NCBI GenBank assembly: GCA_050014495.1
Contig: JBEKDF010000043.1
Location: 1-20,020, forward strand
Length of the DNA stretch: 20,020 nucleotides
Direction of reading: 5' to 3'
Source of the DNA: Candidatus Bathyarchaeia archaeon
Lineage (GTDB): Archaea; Thermoproteota; Bathyarchaeia; TCS64
Position numbers and translations under genes: made by a program
Notes under the pieces: generated by a model
Told to the model about the DNA's origin: nothing
The model's database searches: none
The model's input: only the letters and a program-made list of their open reading frames with translations
Shown here: positions 3,312-19,852 of the stretch, one piece after another
Layout of the letters: every line of letters begins with the position of its first letter
Numbering within the stretch: position 1 is the first letter of the stretch

Positions 3312-3332
3312 TTTTCGAGAAGCCTCATAAAC
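3312..3332 (+). promoter_or_regulatory. Promoter of wHTH gene: quasi-palindrome TTTTCGAGAA followed by TATA-like TCATAAAC
   Basis: The TATA-like element is ~22-29 nt before ATG 3354. The same layout occurs upstream of the wHTH genes at 10414 and 17288. Confidence 0.55.
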
Positions 3333-3353: not shown

Positions 3354-4103
3354 ATGAGCGAGGATGATACATACTCAACGATCTTCACAGCCCTAAAGCA
3401 TCCTATAAGAAGAAAGATACTGCGCATCCTCAACCAGCAACCGACGACATACACGGAGATCCTGAACCAGCTAAACATCGAAAACGGATTGCTCAACTAC
3501 CACCTCGACAACATGAAGGACCTCATCACCAAGGGCGAGGATGGAAAGTATAGCCTCTCGGATTTCGGTGGAGCCGCGATCAGTGTAACCGAGAAGGTTG
3601 AGGGTCCAGTAAAGAGTAGAAGTAACTTGTTAAGTGCTAATCAGATGATTAGAATAATCCTGATTCTCATAGTCGCGATCGCTTCCCTCTCAGTTTTGGG
3701 TTTCCTCCTCTACAATAAAAATACCATGCTTCTCAACCAGAACACTATGCTTCTGAATCAGATCGAAACAGCAAATGTGGTCTTAGGATCATCGTTTGGA
3801 GCGTCAATATCTAGGGTACAGGCAATCACAATCGCCCTACGGAATGGTGGCTGGAACAGCACAGGCCTGAAGGGAATGAAGGTCGATTCGAACCTTGCAT
3901 ATTGTTCTCCTGTTGATGGTAATCTTCACTTTGTTAATAGTACAGTCACTGACTTTTCGCCAAAGAGCGCTACCGGAGTGATGTATCGATACTTTTGGCT
4001 GGTTACTGTTGATCAATCTGTATGGTGCGGCTATATTCGTCCCACCGGATATTATGAGGTTGACGCCGTGACGGGTGAGATAATACCTCTCTTCAACTGG
4101 TGA
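3354..4103 (+). CDS. Membrane-anchored ArsR-like winged-HTH regulator with PepSY-like ectodomain (regulator A)
   Basis: IFTALKHPIRRKILRIL...TYTEILNQLNIENGLLNYHL...KYSLSDFG (ArsR/HTH_20-like). One TM (IILILIVAIASLSVLGFLLY), a short coiled coil, then ISRVQAITIA...YFWLVTV...YEVDAVTGEIIP. Confidence 0.88.
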   Translation: MSEDDTYSTIFTALKHPIRRKILRILNQQPTTYTEILNQLNIENGLLNYHLDNMKDLITKGEDGKYSLSDFGGAAISVTEKVEGPVKSRSNLLSANQMIRIILILIVAIASLSVLGFLLYNKNTMLLNQNTMLLNQIETANVVLGSSFGASISRVQAITIALRNGGWNSTGLKGMKVDSNLAYCSPVDGNLHFVNSTVTDFSPKSATGVMYRYFWLVTVDQSVWCGYIRPTGYYEVDAVTGEIIPLFNW

Positions 4104-4224
4104 TTTATCGAGAACCGCTAAGAGAGGCGCACGCATTCTTACCCCATGAAGCCACGAGTCTCGGGCTGGTCTGGTCGGTGCGCTATCCCATTCTAGTTGA
4201 TTACCCAGCGCACGAAGTTGTTTT

Positions 4225-4944
4225 CTAACTTTTGACTATTGTGTTTAGAAACCAGATTGAACCTGCAACTATGATTAACAGGATAATGATGACCCATTGG
4301 AGGTCTATTTGAGATGGAATTCCTGAGGACCCTGATTGCGTCTGCGCCGCTCCAGCCGCTTCCTCGGCGGCTCTCGCAGCCTCAACAGAAGTATCAGGGC
4401 TAGTGGGACCCCCACCGGTAGATATAGATGAGAGTGGATACACGGAAATCTCGCGAGTCAACTGCTTTACGCCGCCCTACCAGACCGTGATTGAGTAGTT
4501 ACCCGCTTCCCCCAAAACGAAGTTGAAGGTGAACCAGTTCGAGTCTCTGCTATATGAGACGATGCTCTCGTAGGAGGACTCCACACCTCCAATCTGGGCT
4601 GTGATTACAGCTGTGGCACTGTATACACCCGTCTGATTGGACCTAATTGGTCCCACCCTCATCGTGATGGGCTCTCCTGCGATGAATATGTCATCGCGGA
4701 AGTTTACGTAACTTAGGGATAGTTGAGGTTGAACACTTGGTTCGGTTGCATTCGAAACTGGTTTGGAGGCTGTGAGTGCTGGAAACGAACCGGTTTGGGC
4801 AGCCGTTGTTGAATTAGATGCTGGAGCTAGCTGAGCGTGAGCAGGGAGAGAAAAAGAGGTCACAGCGCATACTGTGACGATGAATATGATGATGGTGATG
4901 ATGATTAATCGCCTCAACGTATTTTCATCACTTTCTAATCTCAT
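4225..4944 (-). pseudogene. Secreted, C-terminally anchored Ig-like protein, paralogous to the C-half of 10690..11982; split by in-frame TAG
   Basis: ORFs 4477..4944 and 4225..4461 are one frame: ...GNYSITVW*GGVKQLTREI...STGGGP... aligns with ...GKYTVTIWQNGVKQLARKF...STGGGP... The TAG (4477-4479) sits at the paralog's CAG. Signal peptide, C-terminal TM and an upstream TATA (minus-strand TTATATA, 4966-4972) are present. Confidence 0.8.
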
Positions 4945-5165
4945 TATGTAACCTTTAACTCTATGTATATAATTTCTATTTATTGTAAACAGAGTAAGTT
5001 ATTATGTATACAATATTAATGGAAACATGCTTGCGTTTACTTTTCACACGCATTCTTTATGCGCGCGCATCCTCGCTCCGTTAAGCAATAAGGCTCAGGC
5101 TGGTCGTAGCGCATGCTTCCATGATCAATCGATAATCATAATTCCTCAAACATACAGACATAGTC

Positions 5166-5951
5166 ATGAATGGAGACTACGCGACCAAAGCAACGGCGAT
5201 AATCACATGCATCATCACCATCATCGGATTCATCATACTCTCCACAACCACCAACATTCAGAACCCCCAAACCCCAACAACAAGATCCGCCACGCCTTCC
5301 CTGACATTACTAGGTGCCGGGGCGCACTGGGCCGCAAACGGGGGTAATCGTACACTATATGTGAATTGGATCGACTACTCCCTAGCCCACCCGGGACACC
5401 CAACAGAGTTTAACCCGCCGCCAAACGCGACCAAGATAGTATCTTCAGTGATAAGCGCGTTGAATGATACCGGCCTGATAGTGAACCGTTCAGCAGAGAT
5501 ACCCAGCGACCTCTCCAGGTATAGCGTCGTGGTCATCGACTGCTACTGGGTGGGTAATCCCTCTGATTCACAAATATTGCGCAATTACATTTTCAATGGT
5601 GGAGGTGTGGTGTTGATTAGCGGGACACCGCCCTACTTCGTTAAAAATGATAAGACTTTGCACCCACTGCAGAACGATTTATCTGAGATAGCGGATTGGT
5701 TGGGTGCATCCTCCTACTACAATGTTGAGGGACAAGCGCAGATTACAGTCAACAATCCACTTGGCACTTCTCTTCACCTCAACCAGATGGTCTTCTCGGG
5801 GCCGTGGTCTCAGGCGGCGATATTTGATCTACGGCCAGGTGCGACGCCGGTAGCGGTCTAGGCGGAGGGAGGAATCTTTGCCTATACCTATCAATATGGC
5901 AGTGGAAGAGTGTACTACCAAGCTTCTCATGACTTCGAATCAAATTCTTAG
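5166..5951 (+). pseudogene. Membrane-anchored extracellular protein with class I glutamine amidotransferase-like (ThuA/DUF4350-type) fold; in-frame TAG near the C-terminus
   Basis: N-terminal TM and T/P linker, then DLSRYSVVVID...LRNYIFNGGGVVLISG. The frame continues past TAG 5859-5861 as ATPVAV*AEGGIFAYTYQYGSGRVYYQAS, the YGxGRV strand expected for this fold. Confidence 0.7.
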
Positions 5952-6088
5952 CTTGGGACATAATTGCATATGTCTACGCGTGCATCTGCTTTTCTCTGGT
6001 CTCTTGTCTTTTTTAGGAAAAGGTGGTTTAAGTCAAGAATGCTTCTCTATTTAATTGTTCGTGGAGTTCATCATTCTGGTACCCTTGA

Positions 6089-6421
6089 CTTCGAGGTTGG
6101 TATGGGGAATCTAGCGATGAAGCTCTACCCGATCTATTACTTGTGTTGGTGGGGAAACTATTCATCACGCTGCCTATTCAGAGGATCTTCGTCGTTGTGG
6201 ATAACTCGGTATCCGAGGAGGATGTTTACATGATCCTCGGCTCAGGTAGTTTAGGGCCGGCTATTATGTTTAAGCAGCCAGGTATGACAATTGCTTAGAT
6301 CGCCCTCACTCACATAGCCCAATCTGTGCAGCCCTACGTTGCGATCTATCTGGGTAACCTGGCGCTAGACATCGCTCTGGCAATATGCGTAATCGAAGTT
6401 TATTTGATCGAAAAAAGATGA
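6089..6421 (+). pseudogene. Possible degraded membrane-protein gene
   Basis: About 110-codon frame with one internal TAG (6296-6298) and a hydrophobic end (YVAIYLGNLALDIALAICVIEVYLIEKR*). No clear start and no family recognised. Confidence 0.25.
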
Positions 6422-6445
6422 ACTAGTTACCCATGCGCGCGCTCT

Positions 6446-8854
6446 TTATTTGATCATGCTCACGTCGAGGACGACGGATGACTTGACGCCGCCGGACGCC
6501 TTGAAGGCGAAGGTGTAGAAGCCGCTCCTGGGCACATTGAAGAGTTGCTCGTAGCTCTGAAGCCCCGACTCGCGGATGATGTAGTCGCTCGGCTTCGCGA
6601 GCTCGAAGTCGGTGACGACTGAGACATCAGGGTTGTAGGTAAATGTGTAGAGACCAAACTCTACAGGCTTAGTAGCGTTGTAGCTGATCTTTATGGTGGT
6701 GCCCATCTTCACGTAGGAGCTGTAGAACCGCTCAACGTTGCCATAGTACGACTCCCCATTCGCTGTGTAGTTGTCGAATCCGAGGTTAAACTTGACTGGG
6801 AAATACTCAATCGTGTCGTTTTCTAACCCCTGGTTATTGTATCCGCTCACGATGTCTGAGGACTGCTTCGCGTATAGTGGATAGGGTCCGACGATCTCGG
6901 CTGAGTTGACGTGGAATAGATCAACGATTACTCCGTTGAGGCTGATTTGGAATGGGAATCCGGTGACCCGGATGGTGGAGTTCCCCACGTAGGCGTTGTT
7001 CAGGTCGGTGAGCGTCACGTTGCCGAGCATCTTGTAGCCCTCAACTGGCACCGAGATGAACTCGCTTGGTGTTCCGAGGTGGAGGAGGAGCGACTTGGTG
7101 GAGTTCTCCAGCTTAAGCGTCATCACACTTTCTTTTGATATGGGTGATGTTGAGGAGCCGAGCCTCCCGGTGATTGTCGTCGTTCTGTTGATTGTTGGTG
7201 GGAATTGGAAGTCTTGCTTGACCTCATCTAGCTGTTTGTCCTCTATCATGGCTGCGGTTTGATCTGGGTAGCTTAGGCTACTACCATTCACGGTTCGGCA
7301 CCTGAAGGCGACTATCGCCGTCTCCGGCTGCGCTACATCGAAGCTGAAAGTATATTTCCCCGTAGACCGGACCGTGTATGAACTCTTGTAAGAGTACAAG
7401 TTGTTGTAGCTTAGGACTGTTCCCGAATCTGATGCGAAGCCGAAGATAACCTGTTCTGTGGAGTTGTATCCAAATTCAATGACCGTGCCCTCGCTGAGCG
7501 TCGCCTCGAAACTGATCGAGTGATCGGTCCAAGTGCTATTATACCAAGTTCTACCGACTACGAAGCTCCTCGGGGGAGACTCCAGGTAGAAGGTCTCCCA
7601 GCCCATGCCTCCGAAGGCGCCGCTGCTGCCGCCCGATTCTTTAAAGAGAACCCCAGTTGGATCCCTGCTCACCTTCCAGGTGTTGAATGTGACGTTTGCT
7701 TCGGGTGAGTTTATGGTGAATGCGAAGTCGTAGGTGCCACTCCTCAGGGCTATCAGGCCGCTTCTCATATGCGTGGTGTTATCCGAGTACCAAGTGTAGG
7801 GTGGCTGCCCCTGGGCGACGTAGTAGATGCTGAATCCAACCTGTTGGGTGGAGTTGAACTCGAATCCGATTGCATCTCCCTCGTTTAGGATTACTCTATA
7901 GTTGTGTATCCGGGTGCCATTCAGGGATTTTCCTCCCTCAACGATGAATCTCTGAGGCTGGCTAGCATTACCCAGGTCCTGTACAGTTTGGTTCGTGACT
8001 GTGGCGTTGACCGTGGGCTCGACGTAGATAAAGTTAAGCTGGTTTGTACCCAGGAAGCCGATCTCCATGTCGAAGTGGGGAATCTGAGACCCATTTTGAG
8101 GCGATAGAAAATCAGCAGGGTAAGGGACAGAAGTGTGGATCTCGAGTAGGAAGAACGCGGATCCGCCGGTCTTCAAGATCGCGGACGTAGCGTTCGCTGT
8201 CACGCTGAAACCCATCGGTACGCTAGTTACATTCAATGACACCGGAAGCGAGGCGTTGTAGTAGGGCCTAGCTATCACCCTCAACACAACTGATGTAGAT
8301 TCACCTGGTTTCACCCTTATTGGGGTGCTCGGGTCCCACGCGTTTGGGTGAAGTGACATCAGGTAATCGGGACCAACCGCCGTGACTCCGCCGCCGGTGC
8401 TTTCGAGGCTGAGCATGAGTTCCCCGGTCTGCGCGTCCACGACGTATCTCCCCGATCCTACATAATCTCCGGGAAGAGGTACGAGGTCTGTCTCGTATTC
8501 GATGAGCCAGTATGGTCTGACTTCTCCAACCGGTGTCGGTGAGACATATATTCGGTCGTGCATAGTTAACGGGTCCGAGTTCACTGTCTTTAGGTAGTTT
8601 GTCCAGTTTAGCGAAATATATTCTAGGTCGGCGCTTGCGGGTGAGGCGCTGCCACCTGGGATGCCATTGATTATTCTGGGATCGGTTTTATCGCTTTCTT
8701 TTAGTATCTCGATCGCCTGCGCCTCTGACACGTTTATCGATTGCGCTGGTTGGGTCTGTGATGCTGATTGGGTCTTTGCCACCGTGAGGAAGGCTGTGGT
8801 TGCGAGTATGATGGAGATCAGCACCGTTAGGGTGATGGTTGATGTTTTAGGCAT
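6446..8854 (-). CDS. Large secreted protein: PepSY-like domain, Ig-like domain and three GOLD-like beta-sandwich repeats
   Basis: 802 aa with signal/anchor. Residues ~40-280 are paralogous to 12022..12822 and 14856..15659 (LxYISLNW, PVGExRPYW, GSGRYVVDAQTGE, YNASLPVS, LKTGGS). Three repeats of G.xI.(F/I).(F/Y)N(S/A)T..V.F...(S/T)G.Y.F.F follow. Confidence 0.85.
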   Translation of the reverse strand: MPKTSTITLTVLISIILATTAFLTVAKTQSASQTQPAQSINVSEAQAIEILKESDKTDPRIINGIPGGSASPASADLEYISLNWTNYLKTVNSDPLTMHDRIYVSPTPVGEVRPYWLIEYETDLVPLPGDYVGSGRYVVDAQTGELMLSLESTGGGVTAVGPDYLMSLHPNAWDPSTPIRVKPGESTSVVLRVIARPYYNASLPVSLNVTSVPMGFSVTANATSAILKTGGSAFFLLEIHTSVPYPADFLSPQNGSQIPHFDMEIGFLGTNQLNFIYVEPTVNATVTNQTVQDLGNASQPQRFIVEGGKSLNGTRIHNYRVILNEGDAIGFEFNSTQQVGFSIYYVAQGQPPYTWYSDNTTHMRSGLIALRSGTYDFAFTINSPEANVTFNTWKVSRDPTGVLFKESGGSSGAFGGMGWETFYLESPPRSFVVGRTWYNSTWTDHSISFEATLSEGTVIEFGYNSTEQVIFGFASDSGTVLSYNNLYSYKSSYTVRSTGKYTFSFDVAQPETAIVAFRCRTVNGSSLSYPDQTAAMIEDKQLDEVKQDFQFPPTINRTTTITGRLGSSTSPISKESVMTLKLENSTKSLLLHLGTPSEFISVPVEGYKMLGNVTLTDLNNAYVGNSTIRVTGFPFQISLNGVIVDLFHVNSAEIVGPYPLYAKQSSDIVSGYNNQGLENDTIEYFPVKFNLGFDNYTANGESYYGNVERFYSSYVKMGTTIKISYNATKPVEFGLYTFTYNPDVSVVTDFELAKPSDYIIRESGLQSYEQLFNVPRSGFYTFAFKASGGVKSSVVLDVSMIK

Positions 8855-8880
8855 TAGTGATTACTGAGGGGCACCGGCGA

Positions 8881-8902
8881 CTTAATGCTAGTGTTTAGAA
8901 CA
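8881..8902 (-). promoter_or_regulatory. GTTCTA-N5-TAGCATTA operator/TATA element, copy 2
   Basis: Minus strand TGTTCTAAACACTAGCATTAAG, ending ~27 nt before ATG 8854. Confidence 0.65.
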
Positions 8903-8995
8903 GGGTACACGATACCTGAGTGGGCGGTAGAAGGCAACGATTCGGGCTCACATACAAGTTTTCTCGGGGAGATTCAGGGCTAGGAACCAAGAATC

Positions 8996-10414
8996 TCAGG
9001 ATTCTAGGTTTGACAATACTAGTATACCGTCAGCGCTTATCCCCAGGTCGTCCAAGGCCCACCTGGGGAAGACGAACACCTGCCCAGCATCATCGGGTGC
9101 CCGAACTGTAGCGGTGATGTTCACCGTCTCCCCTGTCCTCAGTGGCAAAGATCCAACTGGCTCGTAAGTTAGAACGTCTCTGAGCCTGTCCGCCATGTTC
9201 GACTGCACCTGATAGGGATCCCGGTACTGCGGGTCGATGATGAGCTTAGCATAAGGAGTATTCACATTGTATGAGATGAACGTCGCCGACACCGTGAAGG
9301 TGAGGTTGCCACCCCCCAAGATCTGTATCTGCTCCGGCAAATCAGGATACACAAGCTTCACGTAGCCATCAATACCCTGAGCAGCTGCCTTCGCAGCAGT
9401 GTCTACCTGAGACTCACTTAGCCCCAAGCCGCCTCGACCGTTCGTCGAATACACTTGGCCGGTGACCGGGTCAACCATGGCGTACATGTACATCCGCGTC
9501 CTGGCCCAGGGTGGATCGATATACGATGTGACCTGCCAGACGTACTTGTCAGTGTAGGGTGATTGAGGGTTGACATCGTATCCGAAGGCACCAACTATCT
9601 CCGCTGCCAACCCATAGGGGCTATCGAATAGACCAGCGTTGAGGGCGAGGCGCTTCGCTTCAGCCGCCGTGATGTTGTATGGCTGCAGGTTACCCTCCAC
9701 GGGAATTTCACCGGATTGCATTATGTACTCCGGATGGAACTCGAAGATGATTTTTTCATCCTTAGAGTAATTCCCCACCTCTATGCGGTAGCTGTATGTG
9801 ACTCTGGTCGCGTTTGGCTGATTGGCTGGATTTGACTCGACGGTGGGGTCGTGGAAGTACTTGTTGAAGTAGTCGACCCCGACTCTGTCTATGATGATGG
9901 TGGAGGCCCTTACAAGCGGGTTCTTCTCAAGGGTGGTCAGGGTCGAGTTGAGTCGACTCGAAGACGCTACGGAGGTGTTAAGTGCTGATTGCAGGTAGCT
10001 CTTCTCGATGCTCTGAGTGCTGTATCTTCCGGATAAGTCGAGGTACCTGTTGTTGAGCTCAATGAGCCCCAAGCCGGATACGACGAGGGCGACTACTAGG
10101 ACCGCTGCGAGCACCTTCATGATGGGCGAGGTGAAGGTTGATTTAACTACCTTACTCGGCTCCTCCACGCCTCTAATCAGGCCAGCCGTGGCCCTTCCGA
10201 AGTCGGATAACGTGTACTTCTCCTCGCCATTCTTGGTGATGAGTGAGCTCAGGGCCTCTAGGTGGTAGTTGAGGAGCCCGTTGTCTATGTTGAGGTCCCT
10301 CTGGATCTCCGTGTAGGTCGATGGCTTCTCGCCTATCATTCGTAGGATTCTTCGCCTTATGGGATGCTGTATTGCCTTGAAGATGGTGTTGTAGGTGTCC
10401 TCCTCGAAGCCCAT
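8996..10414 (-). CDS. Membrane-anchored ArsR-like winged-HTH regulator with large PepSY-like plus beta-rich ectodomain (regulator B)
   Basis: IFKAIQHPIRRRILRMI...NIDNGLLNYHL...KYTLSDFG, TM (VLAAVLVVALVVSGLGLI), coiled coil, then ITAAEAKRLA...YVWQVT...MVDPVTGQVY. Confidence 0.88.
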   Translation of the reverse strand: MGFEEDTYNTIFKAIQHPIRRRILRMIGEKPSTYTEIQRDLNIDNGLLNYHLEALSSLITKNGEEKYTLSDFGRATAGLIRGVEEPSKVVKSTFTSPIMKVLAAVLVVALVVSGLGLIELNNRYLDLSGRYSTQSIEKSYLQSALNTSVASSSRLNSTLTTLEKNPLVRASTIIIDRVGVDYFNKYFHDPTVESNPANQPNATRVTYSYRIEVGNYSKDEKIIFEFHPEYIMQSGEIPVEGNLQPYNITAAEAKRLALNAGLFDSPYGLAAEIVGAFGYDVNPQSPYTDKYVWQVTSYIDPPWARTRMYMYAMVDPVTGQVYSTNGRGGLGLSESQVDTAAKAAAQGIDGYVKLVYPDLPEQIQILGGGNLTFTVSATFISYNVNTPYAKLIIDPQYRDPYQVQSNMADRLRDVLTYEPVGSLPLRTGETVNITATVRAPDDAGQVFVFPRWALDDLGISADGILVLSNLES

Positions 10415-10440
10415 GGTCGGTCGATTGTACCTTACCCGGG

Positions 10441-10463
10441 CTTTAAAAAAGGGTTTTCGAGAA
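10441..10463 (-). promoter_or_regulatory. Promoter of regulator B: TTCTCGAAAA followed by TTTTTAAAG
   Basis: Minus strand TTCTCGAAAA-CCC-TTTTTTAAAG, with the TATA ~27-36 nt before ATG 10414. On the + strand the 10-mer (10454-10463) is identical to 3312-3321 although the gene is inverted. Confidence 0.6.
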
Positions 10464-10542
10464 ATCTTTTTCTCCTAAACTGTGCTATCAATTGAGTGTC
10501 GGGAGAAGAACTATTCTCTACGACGCGCTAAGTCATAACAAC

Positions 10543-10567
10543 TGTTCTATTCTCTAGCATTATATCC
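10543..10567 (+). promoter_or_regulatory. GTTCTA-N5-TAGCATTA operator/TATA element, copy 3 (divergent from regulator B)
   Basis: TGTTCTATTCTCTAGCATTATATCC. Confidence 0.65.
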
Positions 10568-10613
10568 GTCTAGGGTAGTAATGGATTAACAACAATAATG
10601 GTGGGAAAGACTC

Positions 10614-10658
10614 ATGAAACTTGTATACATCCTAATTATCATGCATGCGCGCGCGTAG
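10614..10658 (+). pseudogene. Signal-peptide stub truncated at a (GC)n junction
   Basis: MKLVYILIIM then HARA* where the GCGCGCGCG tract (10647-10655) begins. It lies downstream of motif copy 3. Confidence 0.35.
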
Positions 10659-10689
10659 TATGGCAGTCAATGCATAAAAGTGAAGCATT

Positions 10690-11982
10690 ATGATGAAATC
10701 ACAATTAGCCCTGTTGACGGCACTACTCTTCTTGGCCCTAACCCTCCCCACATCAAACGCCTCCTTAACCCGCTTAACCTACGATCAGATACAGTCACAG
10801 TCAGACCTCATCGTACTCGGAAAAGTGACAGGCTCAACAAGCCACACCGACTCGGGGAACGACACGGGTAACGTCCCCTACCTTATCAGACACGTGCAGG
10901 TGCAACAGTGCTACAAGGGAGGCGGGCCCCCGAGCATCGACGTGAAGGAGCTGGGGGGCGATCTGGGCAACGGGAACTCGATATGGGTCGAGGACCAGCC
11001 GGAGCTATCCGTCGGCACGACGTACGTCTTATTCCTCAAGGCTGACGGGTATGGCAACTACTACGTCTACGGGGGACCCGAAGGAGGCCTCGCCGTAGTA
11101 GATGGGGTTGCAAGCAACTCCATGTATACCCTTCAGGTCTCCGACTCCGGACTCATACCAGTCCCCGCATCCAACGTAAGCGTGACCGGATTCCACAATG
11201 AAACTTACCCGATAACCAACGGTCCAACAACCCTTGAGATCAAGGTCGGGGGAGGTACCAAGTTCGGATACTGGACTTTCCACGTCACATTCGACGGCGT
11301 TTCAGGCAAAGCCAAGGGATATGTCTCCGAGGACACGGTCAGTGATTTCGTGTACGGCTATGGTTCTTACGTCTCCTTCAGCCATAACTTCACGGTGCCC
11401 GGCGTCTACAGTGTCATCGTCGATGGAGTCAGCTGTGGTCAGCTGGAGGTGAAGCCGGGTGGTTCTCAGATGCATTTGACCTGGGCTGAGTTCTCCTCCG
11501 AGCCCCTCTTCGTCGATGAGCCGATAACTCTGCGTGTGGGGTCCATCCCATCGAACGTGACTGGGGAATATAGAGCCGTGGCGGTGGTAACCCCGAGGCT
11601 TGATGAGGCTGATCCCTACCTCGAGAGCTACGCCTCGTACAGTAGGGACTCACCCTGGTTCACCTTCAACTTCCTCATGAGGGAACCCGGTAAATACACC
11701 GTGACGATTTGGCAGAACGGCGTCAAGCAGCTGGCGAGGAAATTTATGGTTGTTAACTCGACATCGACTGGTGGTGGGCCTTTGAAGCCCGATTCCGCAG
11801 CCTCTCTCGCGGCTGAGCTCGCTGCGGGTAGGACGGCGAATACATCTACGCCTTATGTTTCTGATGTCGGAACACTTCCCGATTCTGCTACCCGGAATAA
11901 TTGGTATCCTTTGGAGGTCCTTCTGCTGCTCATGGTGGTTGCCGCCTCAGGGTTCCTCCTCTATAGAATAAGAGGGAAATAA
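10690..11982 (+). CDS. Secreted, C-terminally anchored multidomain surface protein (TIMP/NTR-like OB-type N-domain, two Ig-like domains)
   Basis: 430 aa with signal peptide; SDLIVLGKV...VQQCYKG...IDVKELGG...PELSVGTTYVLFL; FSHNFTVPGVYSVIVDG; C-terminal TM followed by RIRGK. Confidence 0.8.
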   Translation: MMKSQLALLTALLFLALTLPTSNASLTRLTYDQIQSQSDLIVLGKVTGSTSHTDSGNDTGNVPYLIRHVQVQQCYKGGGPPSIDVKELGGDLGNGNSIWVEDQPELSVGTTYVLFLKADGYGNYYVYGGPEGGLAVVDGVASNSMYTLQVSDSGLIPVPASNVSVTGFHNETYPITNGPTTLEIKVGGGTKFGYWTFHVTFDGVSGKAKGYVSEDTVSDFVYGYGSYVSFSHNFTVPGVYSVIVDGVSCGQLEVKPGGSQMHLTWAEFSSEPLFVDEPITLRVGSIPSNVTGEYRAVAVVTPRLDEADPYLESYASYSRDSPWFTFNFLMREPGKYTVTIWQNGVKQLARKFMVVNSTSTGGGPLKPDSAASLAAELAAGRTANTSTPYVSDVGTLPDSATRNNWYPLEVLLLLMVVAASGFLLYRIRGK

Positions 11983-12021
11983 GACCACTAGCTACGCTCC
12001 CAAGAAATGAGTTTGTTCACA

Positions 12022-12822
12022 TTACCCGCCTGGGACGTAGATGTTGGCGTATTCATCCTCGCCAGCCAGAGTGAACTTAACCCTGACCGCGTAGGACCCT
12101 TTGCTAGACGTCGTCTCCAACGGGATAAAGGGGCCCATAGCGTAGAAAGCAAGCCCAATGTTGAAGCGAACGGCTGCGGAGCCACCAGTCCTAAGAACCA
12201 GAGAGGTGACGTTCTGGGACACGTAGTAACCAACCGGAACCTCAACCACCGTTACGGAAACTGGCAGGGAAGCATCGTAGGAAGACTTCGCATCTATCCT
12301 AATATCGACATGAGCCACATCGGAGGGATCCTTAATGACCAAGGGATTCCTTGGGTCTGAGCCGTTGCTGATCGATGAGACGCCGAAGTATGGGGTAAAT
12401 ATCGTTGAAAATCCGTGGAACTGCTCCATGGCAGCCATGAGCTCCCCCGTATCCGCGTCGACGATGTATCTACCGGATCCAAGGTTGATTACATTAGGCT
12501 GACCATAATCCATGATCCAGTATGGCTTGTCTTCGCCGACTTGGGTCGGGGAGATGTATAGGTGGTTGAAGTTCCCGGCGTTTCGTAGGTACTCGTCCCA
12601 GTTGAGTGATATGTACTGAAGCTCAGCGCTCTCAAGGTGCTCGTCGCTTCTGCCAACCATATATGGATCCGCCTTTGAACTCGTCTCAACGATTTTCATT
12701 GCCTGCTCCTTCGATATCTTCACGTCGCTGCTCGGCATTTTCATGGTTAATGCTGCGAATGTTGTGACTGCTAGTATGCATGATACGATGGCTACTAGCT
12801 GCGTTTGTCTGGGGGGCGTCAA
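12022..12822 (-). CDS. Secreted PepSY-like plus Ig-like protein (paralog family of 6446..8854)
   Basis: 266 aa, TTG start; ISKEQAMKIV, LQYISLNW, VGEDKPYW, GSGRYIVDADTGE, YDASLPVS, LRTGGS. Confidence 0.85.
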   Translation of the reverse strand: MTPPRQTQLVAIVSCILAVTTFAALTMKMPSSDVKISKEQAMKIVETSSKADPYMVGRSDEHLESAELQYISLNWDEYLRNAGNFNHLYISPTQVGEDKPYWIMDYGQPNVINLGSGRYIVDADTGELMAAMEQFHGFSTIFTPYFGVSSISNGSDPRNPLVIKDPSDVAHVDIRIDAKSSYDASLPVSVTVVEVPVGYYVSQNVTSLVLRTGGSAAVRFNIGLAFYAMGPFIPLETTSSKGSYAVRVKFTLAGEDEYANIYVPGG

Positions 12823-13252
12823 TTAGATTACCAACTACAGGTACAATCAAAATGTTATTTAGACCTTAGTCTCAGGATTTACAACTGTAGAAAAAGCAAA
12901 ATCTAATAGATTGAAACTTCCGTAATCGTGCGCAATATTTAAGAAATATAAAATCAGTCTTCAAAGTTTAATGTCTTGTCCTTACTACATCCAGGTAGAG
13001 TGCTACGCAGATGCACTCAACAACGATCTCAAACCCTCCAATATCCCAAAGAACCTCAGCCCTCTCTGTAAAACTGATGACGAGTGGCAAAACTGTGAAC
13101 GATACAATAAGTCAGAGCTGGGCAAAGACCCGGATGAACCATAAAACCCTGGGGTGTTACACACGCATAGAATACAAAGGAAATCGGGGCTCGTATGCAT
13201 TCACTATGGAAAAGCGTAAAAATCATCCAGATTGCTAACTCATTCGACGCCA

Positions 13253-14518
13253 ATGATCAAGAAGAGGATCCTTATCACAGCCTTGGTCATAGTATTAGTC
13301 TCCCTACCTCTCGCTTTCCTACTACCCCCATACATGCGGTCGCAAGCTCAGACACAAGCCTACGCCGCATCGGACCAGAAAGCCGCAAACGCCGACCCCG
13401 AGATCGTGAATGCCAACACCCGCTTCGCGGTCTCGATGATCCAGCAACTAGCCAAGGAGGATCCTGGGAGCAACATATTGATCTCTCCACTCAGCGTCTC
13501 CACCGCCCTAACCATGGCGTACAACGGCGCCGGAGGAACGACGAAGGAGTCGATGGCTAGAACTCTTGGGGTAGAGAATATGAGCCTCAGCAGATTGGAT
13601 AACGGATACCTTAACCTGCTTCAGAGCCTCCAATCCGTCGACGACACGATCCAACTCAGCATAGCCGACTCGATGCTGGTGAAAGACGTGTTCGCGCCTA
13701 AGGTAAAGCAGAGTTTCACCGACAACGTCACGAATTACTTCATGGGTGAGGTCTCCATCCGCCCATTCGACTCCACCACGGTGACCTACATAAATAACTG
13801 GGTGAGCGAGAAGACGAATGGCGTGGTCCAGAAGATGCTGGACGCGATCGACCCGAAAGACGTAGTGATCCTGCTGAATACCATCTACTTCAAGGGAGCC
13901 TGGTCAAACATGTTCAACCCATCCTGGACACGCCCCGGCGTCTTCAAGCTGAGCGACGGATCAACGGCCACCGTCAGCTACATGAACAAGGAAGCGAGTT
14001 ACGGGTACCTCAACGACAGCGAGGCCCAAGCCATCAGACTACCCTACGGTAGGGGCAAGGTCGCGATGTATGTCTTTGTGCCCCGCTCATCGTTGGACTC
14101 CTTCCTTGATGGTTTGACTCGGGGGAGGCTCGACGGCTACTTCACACGCTTCCAGCAGAAGGATCTGGAGCTTAGTATGCCAAGGTTCAACGTGACTTAT
14201 GGGACGAGGAGCCTGAATGACGCGTTGAAGAGTCTCGGTATGGGTGTGGCCTTCGATTGGATGAATGCGGACTTCAGCGGTATCGCGTCGGGGCCGCCGA
14301 ATCTGGCCATAAGTCAGGTTGATCATAAGGCTTACGTCGGCGTCGGTGAGGGGGGGACGGTGGCCGCCGCGGCTACGTCGGTTGAGATTATTCAGACGGC
14401 CTCTAGGCCTGGGTTTGTGGTGGATAGGCCGTTTCTGTTCGTCATCAGGGACGACCGCTCCGGGTCGATACTCTTCATAGGAGAGATAGAGAATCCCCTG
14501 CAGACGACCTCTCCGTAA
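13253..14518 (+). CDS. Secreted or membrane-anchored serpin (serine protease inhibitor, MEROPS I4)
   Basis: NILISPLSVSTALTMAYNGAGGTT, INNWVSEKTNG, LLNTIYFKGAW, RLPY, MPRF, hinge EGGTVAAAAT and FVVDRPFLFVIRD...ILFIG. ATG 13253 gives the signal MIKKRILITALVIVLVSLPLAFLL; the ORF track starts at TTG 13232. Confidence 0.96.
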   Translation: MIKKRILITALVIVLVSLPLAFLLPPYMRSQAQTQAYAASDQKAANADPEIVNANTRFAVSMIQQLAKEDPGSNILISPLSVSTALTMAYNGAGGTTKESMARTLGVENMSLSRLDNGYLNLLQSLQSVDDTIQLSIADSMLVKDVFAPKVKQSFTDNVTNYFMGEVSIRPFDSTTVTYINNWVSEKTNGVVQKMLDAIDPKDVVILLNTIYFKGAWSNMFNPSWTRPGVFKLSDGSTATVSYMNKEASYGYLNDSEAQAIRLPYGRGKVAMYVFVPRSSLDSFLDGLTRGRLDGYFTRFQQKDLELSMPRFNVTYGTRSLNDALKSLGMGVAFDWMNADFSGIASGPPNLAISQVDHKAYVGVGEGGTVAAAATSVEIIQTASRPGFVVDRPFLFVIRDDRSGSILFIGEIENPLQTTSP

Positions 14519-14745
14519 TGTACTTTGTTGGGGATAGGATGCTTCTCCAAAAAGATACTCGCCGCCAGTTACGCGAATGGGCAATCCTCTTCGAGGATTA
14601 TCCTGGGCTTGGTAAGACTCTGCTGGCCAAGGCATTCGCGAAGGCGACTGGATGTGAATTTAGTCGTGTAGAACGAGGAAAGGAACACTAAGCCTGTGAG
14701 TCTCACCCTCAATGGTGACCTGTCGCTCCTCCCAAATGGGCTTCA
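14518..14745. pseudogene. moxR: Scrambled MoxR-family AAA+ ATPase relic (two fragments on opposite strands)
   Basis: + strand 14518-14670 reads YFVGDRMLLQK...ILFEDYPGLGKTLLAKAFAKATGCEFSRV (Walker A). The minus strand 14731-14669 reads EERQVTIEGETHRLSVPFLVL, the segment that precedes ATQNP in MoxR. Confidence 0.8.
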
Positions 14746-14809
14746 TCGGCTCCGGTGGGAAAACGATTATCACTGGGCTGATCACGCGCTCCTCACTCTT
14801 AATGGACTC

Positions 14810-14830
14810 GTTCTAATCACTAGCATTAAA
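14810..14830 (+). promoter_or_regulatory. GTTCTA-N5-TAGCATTA operator/TATA element, copy 4
   Basis: GTTCTAATCACTAGCATTAAA, ending 26 nt before ATG 14856. Confidence 0.65.
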
Positions 14831-14855
14831 CATAGGTCAATTGATAGAATGAACC

Positions 14856-15659
14856 ATGCTCTTTAGTTCCAAAACCACGATCACAGCCTTGATCTCAGTC
14901 ATCCTCGCGACCTCCGCCTTCATTTTAGTGGCTACAAATCAACAAGCATTCGGGGCAAAGATAAACGAGGAACAGGCAATCAACATACTCAAATCAAGCA
15001 ATAAAACTAATCACAGAATACTAAACGGCACCGTCACGACCCTAACCACCGACTTACAATACGTCGCACTCAACTGGACAAGTTACCTGAATAACACTGG
15101 AGCTGAACCCCATAGCCAAATATATGTCCCAGCCACCCCAGTAGGCGAATCCAGACCATACTGGTTCATTCACATTGAGTCTAGTTGGTACTACGGTTGG
15201 AGCAGTGGTTCTGGTACATACATCGTTGATGCGCAGAGTGGGGAGGTGATGCTCTCACTCGAAAGTATCGGTGGCGGAGTCTCGGCTGTTGGTCCAGATT
15301 ACCTGATCTCCTTCAACCCTCCTGCATATGATCCTGGCCCTCCACTTAGTGTTAAGCCTGGTGTGCTAACTCCAATCACGTTGACTTTGACTGCCCCATC
15401 GTACTACAATGCGTCGCTTCCCGTTTCGATTAGGGTAACTGATGTTCCGTTGGGCTATAGCATTGGGCCGAAGAACGCGACAGCTATCTTGACCACCGGC
15501 GGTTCAGTTTCCTTCGCTTTATTGGTTTTCCAACCGGTTCCGCATCCCGCTGACTTTTTGCCGCCGCCGACTGATCCTTATCCTCACTTTAACGTTGAGA
15601 TCAGCTTCCTTAGTCACACCGACTCTCATCCAATTTACATCGTTTCATCAAACAGGTAA
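14856..15659 (+). CDS. Secreted PepSY-like plus Ig-like protein (closest paralog of the N-third of 6446..8854)
   Basis: 267 aa; INEEQAINILK, LQYVALNW, PVGESRPYW, GSGTYIVDAQSGEVMLSLESIGGGVSAVGPDYL, YYNASLPVS, PADFL. Confidence 0.87.
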   Translation: MLFSSKTTITALISVILATSAFILVATNQQAFGAKINEEQAINILKSSNKTNHRILNGTVTTLTTDLQYVALNWTSYLNNTGAEPHSQIYVPATPVGESRPYWFIHIESSWYYGWSSGSGTYIVDAQSGEVMLSLESIGGGVSAVGPDYLISFNPPAYDPGPPLSVKPGVLTPITLTLTAPSYYNASLPVSIRVTDVPLGYSIGPKNATAILTTGGSVSFALLVFQPVPHPADFLPPPTDPYPHFNVEISFLSHTDSHPIYIVSSNR

Positions 15660-15691
15660 CAGCGACTCATTTCGCCAACCCCAAACCAATC

Positions 15692-15780
15692 CGCGCGCGC
15701 TTAAGGCCCTCGTCCTCGTTGGCGCGCGCTTAACGAGTGTCTCCTTCTCCTCCAGGGCTTCGAATGTGATTTGTGCGCGC
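15692..15780. repeat. Cluster of (GC)n tracts, including direct repeat GCGCGCGCTTAA x2
   Basis: GCGCGCGCTTAA at 15693-15704 and 15722-15733. GCGCGC 15775-15780 is the left target-site copy of the IS. Confidence 0.8.
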
Positions 15781-17065
15781 CGGCTTGTCCCGAAATTCAT
15801 CCAGGCTAGAATAAGCTTATTTTGATAGTTGAGGGTCTCGTCCTCTTGATGGTCTGTCCAACCGTAGGAGGTGAGTTCACTTAGGACAAGATGAACACGA
15901 GACCCTCGAAACACTCTTCAAAAACATCGACTTAAGCATTGCTGAACAGCAACTACTCGGCTGCTACCACACAGCCGGCCCCGGCAGGCCACCGAGGAAC
16001 CCCCTAGGCATACTCAGAGCCCTCCTAGTCATGCGATTGAAGGGAATCCGCAGCCTACGGGAGATGACCAGGATCCTCGACGTAGACAGACGCCTCAGAA
16101 AGCTCTGCCTCATCAAACCCAGCGAGAGGGGATACACGAGGTCAGTAATCAGCCGCTTCACCCACAGGGTCGGAGCCGACCGGATTCAGCTCATCATAGA
16201 GGAGAAGGTTGTGCGGCTCCTAAGGAGGGCTAAAGTGGAGGAGGTGGACGTCATCTTAGACGCCAGCTTCGTCAAGGCTTGGAGCAAAAGGCACCCCGAC
16301 GACGGTAGGATAGGCTTCTCAGACTCTGACGCGAAGGTCGGGAGGAACGGTCGAGGCTACGACCTCGGCTACAAGCTCCACGTCTCCGTGGATCAGAGGA
16401 GGATCCTGCCTCTGGCCGAGGTGATCGCTCCCGCCAACGAGAACGAGAAGAGGCACGCGCCGTCCCTGGTCGAGAGGACCCGGATGGTCCTAGGGAGGGC
16501 CGATGCTAGGCTCAGGAGCCTGATCGCGGACAGCCAGTACAGCAGCGCCAAGGTGAGAGGCCTGGTGGAGACTGCTGTGATCCCTTATACGGCAAGCCAG
16601 ATGCGTGGCGTGGATGTGCTGAGGGTGGATCGGAGGTTCAGGACACATGGCCCCGAGGTAGAGGTGGTTGAGTACCGTAGGCGGCCGGCGGTGGAGGCTT
16701 CGTTTGCCTTCATGAAGACCCAGTTCGGGTTGACTGTGAATAAGGTGAGGGGTCTGCTGGGTGTGTCGGTGTACGCTCTTCTTAGTGTGCTGTGCTGTGT
16801 GCTGAACAGGGAGGCGGCGGAGAACCTGGGTAGGCCGGAGAAGGCCATCTCGCCGACGTTCTTCAACGTCTAAGGGTTCGCGTCTACGGTCGGCGTATGG
16901 GCCGTGGTTAGTGGGTGCTGGGCTTGTCTGTGTCGTTTTTCAGTCGTTTTGCTGGTGGTGTGTTTTGTCTTTGGGGCTTTTTCGGTGTTGGGTCGTCGTT
17001 GGGGTTGATTGTTGGGGTTTTGTTGGTGATTGCTGTTCTAAAGTATTTGATTTAGGGACGAGCCA
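15781..17065 (+). mobile_element. Complete 1285-bp IS5/IS1182-like insertion sequence with 6-bp GCGCGC target-site duplication
   Basis: Left end CGGCTTGTCCCGAAATT and right end (reverse complement) TGGCTCGTCCCTAAATC. GCGCGC lies immediately outside both ends (15775-15780, 17066-17071). Single transposase ORF. Confidence 0.88.
15881..16873 (+). CDS. DDE transposase with DUF772/InsH-like N-domain, ~330 aa; start codon apparently non-canonical (TTA)
   Basis: The open frame extends 50 codons upstream of ATG 16031 (LGQDEHETLETLFKNIDLS...GPGRPPRNPLGILRALLVM). Catalytic motifs ILDASF, GYKLHVSVD, LIADSQYS, YRRRPAVEASFAFMK. SD GGAGGTGA 15867-15874 sits 6 nt before TTA 15881. Confidence 0.88.
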   Translation, partial: LGQDEHETLETLFKNIDLSIAEQQLLGCYHTAGPGRPPRNPLGILRALLVMRLKGIRSLREMTRILDVDRRLRKLCLIKPSERGYTRSVISRFTHRVGADRIQLIIEEKVVRLLRRAKVEEVDVILDASFVKAWSKRHPDDGRIGFSDSDAKVGRNGRGYDLGYKLHVSVDQRRILPLAEVIAPANENEKRHAPSLVERTRMVLGRADARLRSLIADSQYSSAKVRGLVETAVIPYTASQMRGVDVLRVDRRFRTHGPEVEVVEYRRRPAVEASFAFMKTQFGLTVNKVRGLLGVSVYALLSVLCCVLNREAAENLGRPEKAISPTFFNV

Positions 17066-17236
17066 GCGCGCATTCTTTGGATTGGCTATATTCTATTATT
17101 CAAGAAGACGCGCCTACGCTAAATACTAAATAAATACGGGCTGGTGCCCCTCTCCATCTTTTTTCATAGTCACATACTCAAACACGAGTGGAGAAGATTT
17201 CTTACCTAAATACTTGGATAGTCTAGGTAATTTTCC

Positions 17237-17256
17237 TTTTCAAGAACCCCTTTATA
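17237..17256 (+). promoter_or_regulatory. Promoter of regulator C: TTTTCAAGAA followed by TTTATA
   Basis: TTTTCAAGAA-CCCC-TTTATA, ~32-37 nt before TTG 17288. An upstream inverted repeat TTACCTA (17202-17208)...TAGGTAA (17224-17230) is also present. Confidence 0.6.
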
Positions 17257-17287
17257 GGCACACGAAACAAGCCTAATCCGATCCAAC

Positions 17288-18340
17288 TTGAGCGAAGAGG
17301 ATGACACATACTCAACCATGTTCACTGCGCTCAAACATCCAATTCGGAGGAAGATACTACGAATCGTCAGCCAGTCACCAGTCACCTACACAACGATACT
17401 GAACCAGCTTGGAATCGACAACGGTCTACTAAACTACCACCTCGAAAACATGAGAGCCCTTCTTGCCAAGGATGATGAAGAGCGATACCATCTATCGGAA
17501 TTCGGGAAAGCGTCCATCAACTTAATTCAAAGGGTTGAGGAGATCCCCGCAGCTCAGAAGCCCATGGTTCTTGGGTTGAATACAAAACAGGTGACATCGG
17601 TCCTGCTGATTTTGATAATCGGGCTAGCATCTGTCTCCACGCTACTGGGAGTGAGCTATAACGACCATCAACAATTGGGCAATGTGCTTGCCCAGACCCG
17701 CTCCCAACTCGACTTAACCAATCAGCGATTGCAAAACATCTCCTACCTCCAGACACTCACAAACATCACCAAGTCACCGACCGCGATTGTGCCATCATAC
17801 TTCATGACATTCAACTACGATGAAGGACCACCTCTGGTATGGGATCAGCAAACGTCCATCATCGTCTACTATGTGCCCGTCGATGGCTCGGTTACTCGCC
17901 TCGAACTCATTGTACCCTCTTCAAACAGATACACCCTCGAGCTAACCCTCCAGGATGGTAACGCCTGGAAGAATGAGACCTGGGTGAGGCTAGGAACCGT
18001 CGACCAGGTGTACGGCAAGAACCAGAACGCGTCGTTAGGTTCGAGGGTCGTCTGGCAGGCACCTATAGAGTGGTCGATGAACGTCTCCGATTCAGGAGTC
18101 TACGTGACGCCTCCTCTGAGTAGAGGCTGGCATACGTTGAGCATGTTTGGTCCGATAACCCTCCTCGACAAGCTTGTGGCAAGGGGGGAAGACGACTACT
18201 ACAGGTATCCGATGTTTCACGGCTCTGTAGAGGATCCTTCAGCTTCTGTAAAGATGTATAGCTACAGCGTCGCCATCACCGCTTACGTTCAGAAGAATAA
18301 CGATCCCATCTTCTTCGCTGTGGAAAACCGGAGGTATTAG
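17288..18340 (+). CDS. Membrane-anchored ArsR-like winged-HTH regulator with uncharacterised beta-rich ectodomain (regulator C)
   Basis: MFTALKHPIRRKILRIV...GIDNGLLNYHL...RYHLSEFG, TM, coiled coil; ectodomain motifs SII.YYVP.DGS, TLQ.GNAW.N.T, VWQ.PI.WS, GW.T.SMFGP, FFAV. Confidence 0.88.
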   Translation: MSEEDDTYSTMFTALKHPIRRKILRIVSQSPVTYTTILNQLGIDNGLLNYHLENMRALLAKDDEERYHLSEFGKASINLIQRVEEIPAAQKPMVLGLNTKQVTSVLLILIIGLASVSTLLGVSYNDHQQLGNVLAQTRSQLDLTNQRLQNISYLQTLTNITKSPTAIVPSYFMTFNYDEGPPLVWDQQTSIIVYYVPVDGSVTRLELIVPSSNRYTLELTLQDGNAWKNETWVRLGTVDQVYGKNQNASLGSRVVWQAPIEWSMNVSDSGVYVTPPLSRGWHTLSMFGPITLLDKLVARGEDDYYRYPMFHGSVEDPSASVKMYSYSVAITAYVQKNNDPIFFAVENRRY

Positions 18341-18342
18341 GC

Positions 18343-19290
18343 ATGTGGGATTATGAGGACGGGCTACTCGACTACCACCTGGAAAATATGAGGGAACTCA
18401 TCTCCAAGGGCGAAGATGGCAAGTACAGTCTCTCAGAGTTTGAAAGAGCCGCATTGAGCGTAACTAGGAGGGTCGAGGAACCAGTTCAAAGAAAGACTGG
18501 TGTAAGCGTGTGGACCCTGCTGGGGGTAATAATGATCCTAGTCGTAGCGATGGCTACGTTGTCCGGGTTCTACATTATCCTGTTCAACAATTACCAGTCA
18601 CAGAGCGCAGTGCTCACCGAGACTAGTGCAGCCCTCGAATCCGTGAACACTCGACTTAACAGGATTGCACCGCTTGGCGAGTTGATGAACGTCTCCCAGC
18701 CAGCGACGTGGACGACCTTCGGTATACAGATTGTGAAAGGGTTCCCCATGTCATACAAGTACCAGAACATCTCATCGAACACGTCTCTTAGCGACACTAC
18801 GACCTCCATCATAACATTCTATGTACCGGAAAATGGTTCCACTATACACTTCGATTTGGTGGTGGTGGACCCCGTTAACGTGTATGATCTTCACCCGACG
18901 CTTCAGAGGGGAAACGCGTGGAGAAATGACACAAGGGTCAGTGCCGGAACAGTTGGGAAATACTTCAACCTGACTAATCCTAGTACTCCGAATCTGCAGT
19001 TGACGGTATGGCAGTCACCCATTCTCTGGTCTATTACGACAAACGGTGACGGGGTCTACGAGTCCCCGAAGCTGTCTAAGGGTTGGTATACCTTCAGCAT
19101 GTTTGGTCCGGTAATCGCGTATGGCTCCGCTTCGGATATGGGTATGACTCAGGTTCGTACACTCTACGAGTTTTATCCTCGTTATCCCGGTAACGAGGAG
19201 TATGGGCTGATGAGCTTTAGGGCAGATGCCAGCTTCTCTATACTGCGAAATGGGGAAGCGACCTTCTTCGCAGTTTCAACCGATCACTAA
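18343..19290 (+). CDS. 5'-truncated wHTH-TM-ectodomain paralog (regulator D; lacks the first ~40 aa of the wHTH); possibly a pseudogene
   Basis: Begins at DGLLDYHLENMRELISKGEDGKYSLSEF. The ectodomain is colinear with regulator C. ATG lies 2 nt after the regulator C stop. Confidence 0.75.
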   Translation: MWDYEDGLLDYHLENMRELISKGEDGKYSLSEFERAALSVTRRVEEPVQRKTGVSVWTLLGVIMILVVAMATLSGFYIILFNNYQSQSAVLTETSAALESVNTRLNRIAPLGELMNVSQPATWTTFGIQIVKGFPMSYKYQNISSNTSLSDTTTSIITFYVPENGSTIHFDLVVVDPVNVYDLHPTLQRGNAWRNDTRVSAGTVGKYFNLTNPSTPNLQLTVWQSPILWSITTNGDGVYESPKLSKGWYTFSMFGPVIAYGSASDMGMTQVRTLYEFYPRYPGNEEYGLMSFRADASFSILRNGEATFFAVSTDH

Positions 19291-19351
19291 ATCGAAAAAT
19301 CGCGTAATTTGATAAGATAGTGAAGGTGAATTAGTAGTCACTCAAACAAGA

Positions 19352-19852
19352 GTGGTCGCAGTGAAACAACATACCTTCATCTTCTCGCTTCTTATCATAA
19401 TTCTTCTATCAGTGACACTAATCGGAGCCATAGACCAAAAACCCAGAAATTACACTGCACCTTCACCTAAAACCGAAAATGGTCCACCGTTTACCAGCGT
19501 GGAGGCGATACAAGCCGACATCGACTGGTACAAGACGACCTTCGGAGAAGACCTTTCAGGGCAAAACCTGACGGCGACGCTGTACCTTACCAGATCATTT
19601 CACGTATACGGTACCAATGGAAGCAGCTTCGAGATGCTGAAGGAGGCGATGCTCATCGGAGGAGGATACGCCCCGTGGACGGAGTATAACACTACGGACC
19701 CGGGAACGTACTCGTATCCGCCTGTCTACGGTGATATGACGTATCGATTCGTTTGGGAGGTGAAGGTGAGGGGTTCAAACAGCCTACCCCCGGACGGCTA
19801 CGCTTTCGTCGATGCCTACACCGGGAAGATAATCCCAATGACATTACTGTAA
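19352..19852 (+). CDS. Secreted or anchored stand-alone PepSY-like protein resembling the regulator A ectodomain
   Basis: N-terminal hydrophobic segment; YRFVWEVKV...PPDGYAFVDAYTGKIIPM versus regulator A YRYFWLVTV...RPTGYYEVDAVTGEIIPL. Confidence 0.8.
   Translation: MVAVKQHTFIFSLLIIILLSVTLIGAIDQKPRNYTAPSPKTENGPPFTSVEAIQADIDWYKTTFGEDLSGQNLTATLYLTRSFHVYGTNGSSFEMLKEAMLIGGGYAPWTEYNTTDPGTYSYPPVYGDMTYRFVWEVKVRGSNSLPPDGYAFVDAYTGKIIPMTLL

Follow-up and report, generated by a model that had tools for sequence, protein, structure and literature searches.

Candidate membrane-tethered one-component regulators with exchangeable external domains and two putative operators in a Bathyarchaeia genome

Bathyarchaeia are abundant and poorly studied archaea. 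Here we analyse a stretch of 20,020 nt from a Candidatus Bathyarchaeia archaeon (assembly GCA_050014495.1), hereafter the window, which is the whole of contig JBEKDF010000043.1 and carries four paralogous genes for what appear to be transmembrane transcription regulators, referred to below as receptors R1–R4. The first three combine a winged helix-turn-helix (wHTH) head, one transmembrane (TM) segment, a stalk and an external domain (ectodomain). R1 (3354..4103, + strand, 249 aa) has a small ectodomain and R2 (8996..10414, − strand, 472 aa) a large one, and R3 (17288..18340, + strand, 350 aa, TTG start) has a beta-sandwich according to a structure model. R4 (18343..19290, + strand, 315 aa) has an ectodomain of the R3 type and has lost its promoter and about its first 40 codons; its transcript would be that of R3. 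These four open reading frames (ORFs) are those of the initial annotation, and the domain that it described as shared (HPIRR...NGLLNYHL...LS(D/E)FG) is indeed present in R1–R3, which pass the cut-off of Pfam family PF24038 (DUF7347) with 32.0–32.5 bits against 27.6 and give weak matches to ArsR-type HTH families of Pfam, HTH_5 and HTH_20 also being listed. R4, for which there is no match, starts inside the recognition helix (GLLDYHL), two bases past the R3 stop, in agreement with its earlier description as truncated. We rejected an assembly error, since a contig from another run (X6; 17944–19377) crosses the R3/R4 junction without mismatch, and because there is also a full-length relative (P0018) with an intact head and an ectodomain 75% identical, we regard the truncation as real.

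The genome contains seven intact members in addition to the headless R4, and their heads, 54–84% identical, all have the NGLLNYH helix. The family is distributed patchily: it occurs in 20 of 151 genomes of the class (E 1e-27), with a few members in other classes of the phylum, almost all named homologues come from Bathyarchaeia, and single genomes hold as many as eight paralogs. We gathered 156 distinct heads and kept the 137 that had sufficient upstream DNA and few gaps. A TM segment lies at residues 80–115 in all 124 full-length members, and each of the four window members has a single hydrophobic segment, as had been noticed before. Lysine plus arginine is more frequent before the TM segment than after it in 105 of 125 members (the opposite holds in 5), and N-glycosylation sequons number 1.34 per 100 aa after the segment and 0.35 before it. 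Because of these two biases the head is predicted to lie on the cytoplasmic side and the C-terminal domain outside, in line with the ToxR/CadC-type topology that the initial annotation had proposed. A model of R3, built on an alignment of 29 sequences (predicted local distance difference test score, pLDDT, 80), suggests an ArsR/SmtB-type head, a disordered linker, a single helix at residues 99–158 and the beta-sandwich. The modelled head matches SmtB with Z 12.5 (root-mean-square deviation 2.8, 87 residues aligned) and CzrA with Z 12.3, and the head profile matches 1y0u (E 2.6e-7). Scores of the heads against the NCBIfam metalloregulator model NF033788 (21–29 bits) stay below the cut-off of 55, no conserved cysteine was found in the head alignment, and the heads gave no Pfam match to Trans_reg_C at E 0.05–0.1. 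Behind the receptor genes there is a convergent gene in 48 of 77 cases and a close co-oriented gene in 11, of unrelated kinds. A literature search, for which most subscription journals were out of reach, found nothing on DUF7347 or on this receptor family. A viral origin was considered and dropped, as none of 22 pattern matches in viral contigs was confirmed. A related head (NTGKFNYHL) is fused to three to five TM segments, without a large ectodomain, at loci L050–L060, where a box GATAA-N6-TAGTC stands before the B recognition element (BRE).

Upstream of all seven intact genes there are two copies of a 16-bp palindrome, GAnAA-N6-TTnTC, which we call box A, and in all seven the proximal copy ends where a BRE-like purine run starts. 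In the window, the distal and proximal boxes lie at 3265..3280 and 3301..3316 for R1, where a BRE-like and then a TATA-like stretch follow directly, at 10503..10518 and 10459..10474 for R2 (44 nt apart), and at 17191..17206 and 17226..17241 for R3. The single shared operator that the initial annotation had postulated thus has a candidate in this paired element. In leave-one-out scans every held-out promoter ranked in the top 3–11 of 3.1 million positions. A model of box plus BRE made from 79 sites in other sequences found 10 sites in the genome, of which 7 are family promoters and the remaining 3 are an orphan on contig C71 and two sites (C7 and C13) without an evident family gene. The orphan (C71:1434–1500; L213) is a receptor promoter with both A boxes and BRE/TATA and no receptor gene behind it; its part 1434–1484 nearly reproduces a family promoter from a relative, and it adjoins a BlaI/MecI-type repressor gene (PF03965) and an exported gene with the second element, box B, described below. 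In five relatives, 8 of 10 matches to the strict pattern lie just upstream of family genes (control, 0).

Among homologues, box A with BRE precedes 120 of 137, and 15 of the 17 without it form one clade of about 425-aa forms. A second box is present in 84 of the 116 promoters with sufficient sequence, in 83 of these at 23–25, 33–37, 42–46, 54–55 or 66 nt, that is, in steps of about 10.5 bp (R 0.84–0.86; p 0.018 with each spacing class counted once). Moreover, base 15 of the box goes with the recognition helix: 113 of 115 members have T there if their helix is of the [N/T/K]GxLNY form and A if it is of an S/T type (5 members with another base excluded), and the rule holds in all 4 further S-type members obtained by protein search. 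Loose-pattern boxes upstream of genes 5166 and 19352 were rejected at weight-matrix scores of 0.6 and 4.4 bits. We likewise gave up a general role of the distal box in divergent promoters, there being no opposite-strand BRE/TATA above threshold in 116 promoters.

The window has three ectodomain types, as had been claimed: R3 and R4 share one, and those of R1 and R2 match neither it nor each other (phmmer). The R1 ectodomain gives a weak match to PepSY (PF03413) with E 0.007 and 17.1 bits, below the cut-off of 24, and is related to that of a paralog on contig C18. A headless, membrane-anchored homologue of this R1/C18 type is encoded at 19352..19852 (+ strand; E 2.6e-12 to the C18 paralog) and scores 19.5 bits against the same PepSY cut-off of 24. 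For the R2 ectodomain there is no Pfam match, and its PepSY-like Atlas score of 0.80 is a lead only. The R3 sandwich had no Foldseek match at E 0.001, just weak GOLD/jelly-roll leads (7rrm, E 2.9e-3) with Atlas scores below 0.9. Across the family, grouping by sequence gave 31 clusters for 117 ectodomains, and truncated or multi-TM forms make up some of these clusters. That ectodomains are interchangeable, as previously suggested, is borne out by 24 pairs whose heads are at least 90% identical and whose ectodomains belong to different clusters; in the top swap pairs similarity mostly stops at about residue 128–187, in or past the stalk, and the R3-type ectodomain is joined both to NGLLNY heads and to SSHLTY heads. 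To judge from these alignments, boxes, promoter, head and TM segment behave as a cassette that would be joined to new ectodomains in the stalk. Recombination of orphan cassettes as in polymorphic toxins was rejected, paralog DNA being just 69–76% identical, and the one contig joint between paralog heads, found in one run and with a 32-nt side, was read as paralog similarity. An open frame on contig C46 (2584–3477, − strand; L217) looks like a rearrangement junction: it joins a fragment, perhaps of PfpI/DJ-1 type, to an R3-type ectodomain.

Box B (TGTTCTA-N5-TAGYATTA) occurs at four places in the window, before three exported genes and one short ORF. It lies at 8881..8902 (− strand) before gene 8854 (6446..8854, − strand), which encodes an exported 802-aa protein with a hydrophobic segment; at 10543..10564 (+ strand), pointing to the divergent exported gene 10690 (10690..11982, + strand, 430 aa, C-terminal anchor); at 14809..14830 (+ strand) before gene 14856 (14856..15659, + strand), encoding an exported 267-aa paralog of 8854 and 12822; and at 3221..3242 (− strand), where it points away from R1 to a 78-aa ORF without a TM segment (2978–3214, − strand). 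With a matrix made from 14 sites in other sequences, the 18 top sites of the genome include 14 with an ORF, 13 of which encode N-terminally anchored proteins, as compared with 157 of 1090 after random positions. Box B is found at 10 of 194 exported promoters and at 2 of 1515 others (p 1.5e-8). The strict pattern is present in 46 of 71 family genomes (control, 0), all 28 sites with an ORF among 30 loci in relatives precede anchored proteins, and box B has an identical form in genomes that yielded no member of the receptor family.

The best-conserved box B site immediately follows the gene of a 145-aa wHTH protein whose hydrophobic C-terminal half we read as two TM segments (wHTH-2TM). This gene is present in 122 of 151 class genomes, and B-type boxes follow it in 22 of 30 loci, often as a perfect palindrome together with a promoter-proximal copy. 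Of 131 receptor genes, 20 have a box B no more than 260 nt away, oriented away from the receptor gene in every case; its centre distances to the proximal box A are about 31, 64, 76, 86 and 97 nt (p 0.005, five classes). The arrangement recurs in an island of a relative (L360), where a headless ectodomain of the R2 type stands under box B. On C11 (29258–29710, + strand; L211, L218) two B boxes and then a gene for a small TM-linker-TM protein come after the wHTH-2TM gene. The wHTH-2TM protein may be a master regulator for exported proteins, and the small protein its ToxS-like partner. A paralog on C4 (56963–57412, − strand; L212) is followed by a palindrome variant of its own (TTCAA-N5-YTGAA-like) and an exported gene, and in another genome (G081:C46; L364) three tandem receptors have two box types and heads of both the SSHLTY and the NGLLNY kind, and are separated by B boxes.

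As for the targets of box A, it lies upstream of none of the 194 exported-gene promoters of this genome as compared with 5 of 1515 others, and its best score among the window's exported genes is 4.4 bits, against 14.6–17.9 for R1–R3. Beyond the receptor family no box A target was detectable in this genome. R4 and 19352 may be carried on the R3 transcript. In genus g67, two genomes have 35 copies each of GTCAA-N6-TTGAC with BRE (control counts, 1 and 3). Among 36 sites inspected in the complete genome G152, 28 belong to the GTCAA type, an ORF is present at 25 and encodes an N-terminally anchored protein in 23 cases, and the boxes are paired at 34–35 or 44–45 nt; NosD/beta-helix proteins account for 7 of the 13 box-A-variant targets scanned in G152 and G158. 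Ten or more matches to box plus BRE are found in 5 of 151 class genomes, every one of them among the 20 with the receptor family. Candidate readers of the large GTCAA regulons are members with SSHLTY-like helices; in genus g8, receptors of this class have GTCAA boxes in their own promoters. Forms of about 425–435 aa at loci L028–L047, L250–L254 and L271–L272 have no box in their own promoter; SSHLTY-like forms of this length, in genomes with large GTCAA regulons, may serve as master activators. At three g8 loci (L280, L294, L296) a receptor and a divergent exported protein each have a GTCAA box and BRE, about 93 nt apart, and the one protein scanned (L280) has a transglutaminase-like domain.

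We propose that the receptors bind and activate their own two-box promoters, so that in this genome they mainly regulate themselves, and that the neighbouring exported genes are run through box B by another membrane regulator; the probability that we give to this reading is roughly 0.68. Its parts differ in strength. The architecture, the topology signals, both boxes with their positions and the gene associations are direct observations, and from these sequence relationships it is very probable that the heads bind box A. Binding as paired dimers in a fixed phase is a good deal less certain and still probable, activation rather than repression, which we suppose by analogy, comes slightly below that, and we lean towards an ectodomain that senses something and signals through the long helix. 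One dimer would read each box A palindrome, and because the spacing follows helical steps, the two dimers may bind cooperatively on the membrane side of the DNA. The proximal dimer would recruit TFB/TBP, as TFB-RF1, EarA and ArnR do from the same position, under control of the ectodomain via one continuous TM-stalk helix. Since the seven intact heads share the NGLLNYH helix and the box type, any activated paralog would raise all seven; in other words, the receptors would share one operator and amplify one another as an OR gate with positive feedback, with a separate secretome regulon alongside. In some lineages the same box type seems to have spread to about 25 surface-protein promoters.

Several observations weigh against this proposal. 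In a tree-aware analysis the covariation of helix and base is not significant, with 2–3 independent pairs on supported branches, and the match appears to come mostly from one deep split. Promoter and head are inherited together, and therefore shared ancestry adds to the conservation of the box. An argument for activation from weak TATA boxes failed, as canonical BRE-TATA is present in 12 of 120 box promoters compared with 146 of 1709 generic ones. Box A touches the BRE, so that a bound protein might instead block the promoter sterically and repress it, and repression is what most ArsR/SmtB proteins do. A soluble factor is another possible reader of box A. Genome G149 has the SSHLTY long form and 3 box matches only, and it is by gene adjacency only that the wHTH-2TM protein is likely the best candidate reader of box B.

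If we compare the proposed receptors with known systems, they would work like ArnR, with tandem boxes and membrane attachment, in a ToxR/CadC topology, and they lack defining features of both and of ArsR metalloregulators. In the respective reports, the archaeal activators TFB-RF1 and EarA bind upstream of the BRE (PMC5937170, PMC5512572) and ArnR of Sulfolobus acidocaldarius requires both of its two boxes (PMC6396743). ArnR and ArnR1 are, in the same report, membrane-bound one-component regulators and paralogs with near-identical HTH that control surface structures through two inverted repeats upstream of the BRE (PMC6396743), an arrangement seen here in 84 of 116 promoters, where binding is presumed. 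However, ArnR is described there as having HAMP and sensor domains before two C-terminal TM segments and a box TCGAC-N5-GTCGA (PMC6396743), whereas the receptors have one TM segment at about residue 100, a variable domain outside and box A. As far as that account goes, swapped ectodomains, up to eight paralogs per genome and boxes in their own promoters also set the receptors apart. With ToxR, TcpP and CadC they share a predicted N-terminal cytoplasmic DNA-binding domain, a single TM segment and an external domain; unlike the OmpR-type wHTH of ToxR and CadC, the modelled head has the ArsR/SmtB fold, and unlike ToxR with ToxS, the receptor gene has no conserved ToxS-like partner behind it (a close co-oriented gene in 11 of 77, of unrelated kinds). 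The closest solved folds are the ArsR/SmtB repressors (SmtB, CzrA, HlyU, PagR and NolR; Z 11–12.5), with which the receptors would share self-regulation through a palindrome, but unlike the metalloregulators of this group they are membrane-anchored, without conserved cysteine and below the NCBIfam cut-off. TFB-RF1 (PF1088 of Pyrococcus furiosus) is soluble, has one box per promoter and, unlike the receptors, no ectodomain. The receptors do have the predicted DNA-binding domain and TM segment by which Demey et al. broadly define transmembrane transcription regulators. In the main text and nine supplements of their 2023 census the string 'Bathyarch' is absent (PMC10269533), and its text reports such membrane-tethered factors as predicted in most archaea and few of them as having a known site or target (PMC10269533).

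The main rival explanation, which we consider quite unlikely, is that the ectodomains are cargo and not sensors, the cassette being grafted onto surface proteins so that it sets their copy number or switches their display in a self-limiting or bistable manner. This would agree with the recurrence of headless, separately anchored ectodomain homologues (19352, L116, L108, L120 and L119, and the one under box B in L360), with the 315-aa frame that R4 keeps open despite its lost head, with the lack of box A targets beyond the family in this genome, and with convergent genes behind 48 of 77 members, just 11 having a close co-oriented one. However, the same box type stands at about 25 unrelated surface genes in G152, divergent partner genes in genus g8 have a box of their own, and the continuous TM-stalk helix predicted by the model suits signal transfer.

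Control of the clustered secreted genes by the receptors through one shared operator, which was the version of the initial annotation, now appears very improbable. The association with secreted-protein genes on which it leaned does exist: exported proteins are encoded by 64 of 258 genes that adjoin box-bearing members, compared with 12% of genes genome-wide, and for divergent neighbours the figure is 18 of 37. In addition, in 20 of 131 promoters the distance between box B and box A follows helical steps, so that a receptor bound at the distal box might act on the divergent gene; one clade has, next to the distal box, opposite-strand BRE/TATA-like bases that face an exported gene (judged by eye; scores are low). 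Nonetheless, no exported gene of the window scores for box A, nor does any of the 194 genome-wide, and the element that the exported genes have in common is box B, which also occurs where receptors were not found. That the clustered secreted genes are the output in this genome is not supported, although the idea seems to fit the genus of G152 with its box A variant. Marginally less probable still is that both boxes are core-promoter elements for TFB/TBP paralogs, or sites of soluble regulators, and that the heads do not read them: in its favour, the genome has 7 TFB and 3 TBP genes, and box B overlaps with the position of the BRE and continues into TATA-like bases; against it, both elements are palindromic and form pairs ahead of the core promoter, box A changes with the helix of the head, and in 22 of 30 loci the wHTH-2TM gene is immediately followed by perfect B palindromes.

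Returning to self-activating receptors beside a box B regulator, one may extend this proposal, tentatively and with the odds against it, to two interlocked membrane-tethered regulators that run the surface of Bathyarchaeia. The wHTH-2TM protein, as a core regulator, would drive a secretome regulon by way of box B, and a mobile cassette of two boxes, promoter, ArsR head and TM segment would capture surface proteins as plug-in sensors and link them in a cross-activating network with positive feedback; on back-to-back promoters the two regulators would gate each other, bound at a fixed helical phase on the side of the DNA that faces the membrane, with a two-residue specificity code. If this were true, archaea would have a recombinable receptor repertoire with a readable specificity code. 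The general idea of transmembrane regulators is familiar; what is added here are two candidate operators together with the proteins that may read them, a candidate specificity rule that links helix to base, and ectodomain swaps that occur in nature. All of these lend themselves to experiments in vitro or in a model archaeon, with no need to culture the host. The helically stepped spacing offers a handle on how a membrane-held regulator works, box B also helps to predict which proteins of these genomes are exported, and a head tolerant of many ectodomains could become a chassis for archaeal synthetic receptors.

The remaining genes of the window form part of a true exported-gene cluster. An N-terminal hydrophobic segment is present in 9 of its 15 called genes, compared with 336 of 2862 genome-wide, which places the window at the top of 111 windows of 20 kb. 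The earlier statement that nearly all other intact genes encode exported proteins therefore stands as regards the cluster but not for the glycosyltransferase and the transposase, and two genes of the cluster are each broken by an in-frame stop: 4225..4944 (− strand; stop at 4477–4479), of which contig C21 holds an intact paralog, and 5166..5951 (+ strand; stop at 5859–5861). Two others score for neither box, namely an exported 266-aa paralog (12022..12822, − strand) and a membrane-anchored serpin (13232..14518, + strand), a second copy of which on contig C6 carries box B. The window has repeated sequence at both ends (1–122 and 19899–20020) and, inside, an insertion sequence with a DDE transposase (15769..16933, + strand), the element being multicopy in the genome. 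Near the left end, 482–1015 encodes an InlB B-repeat (Flg_new_2) surface protein, and 1355–2596 a family-2 glycosyltransferase with a lower GC content of about 40%.

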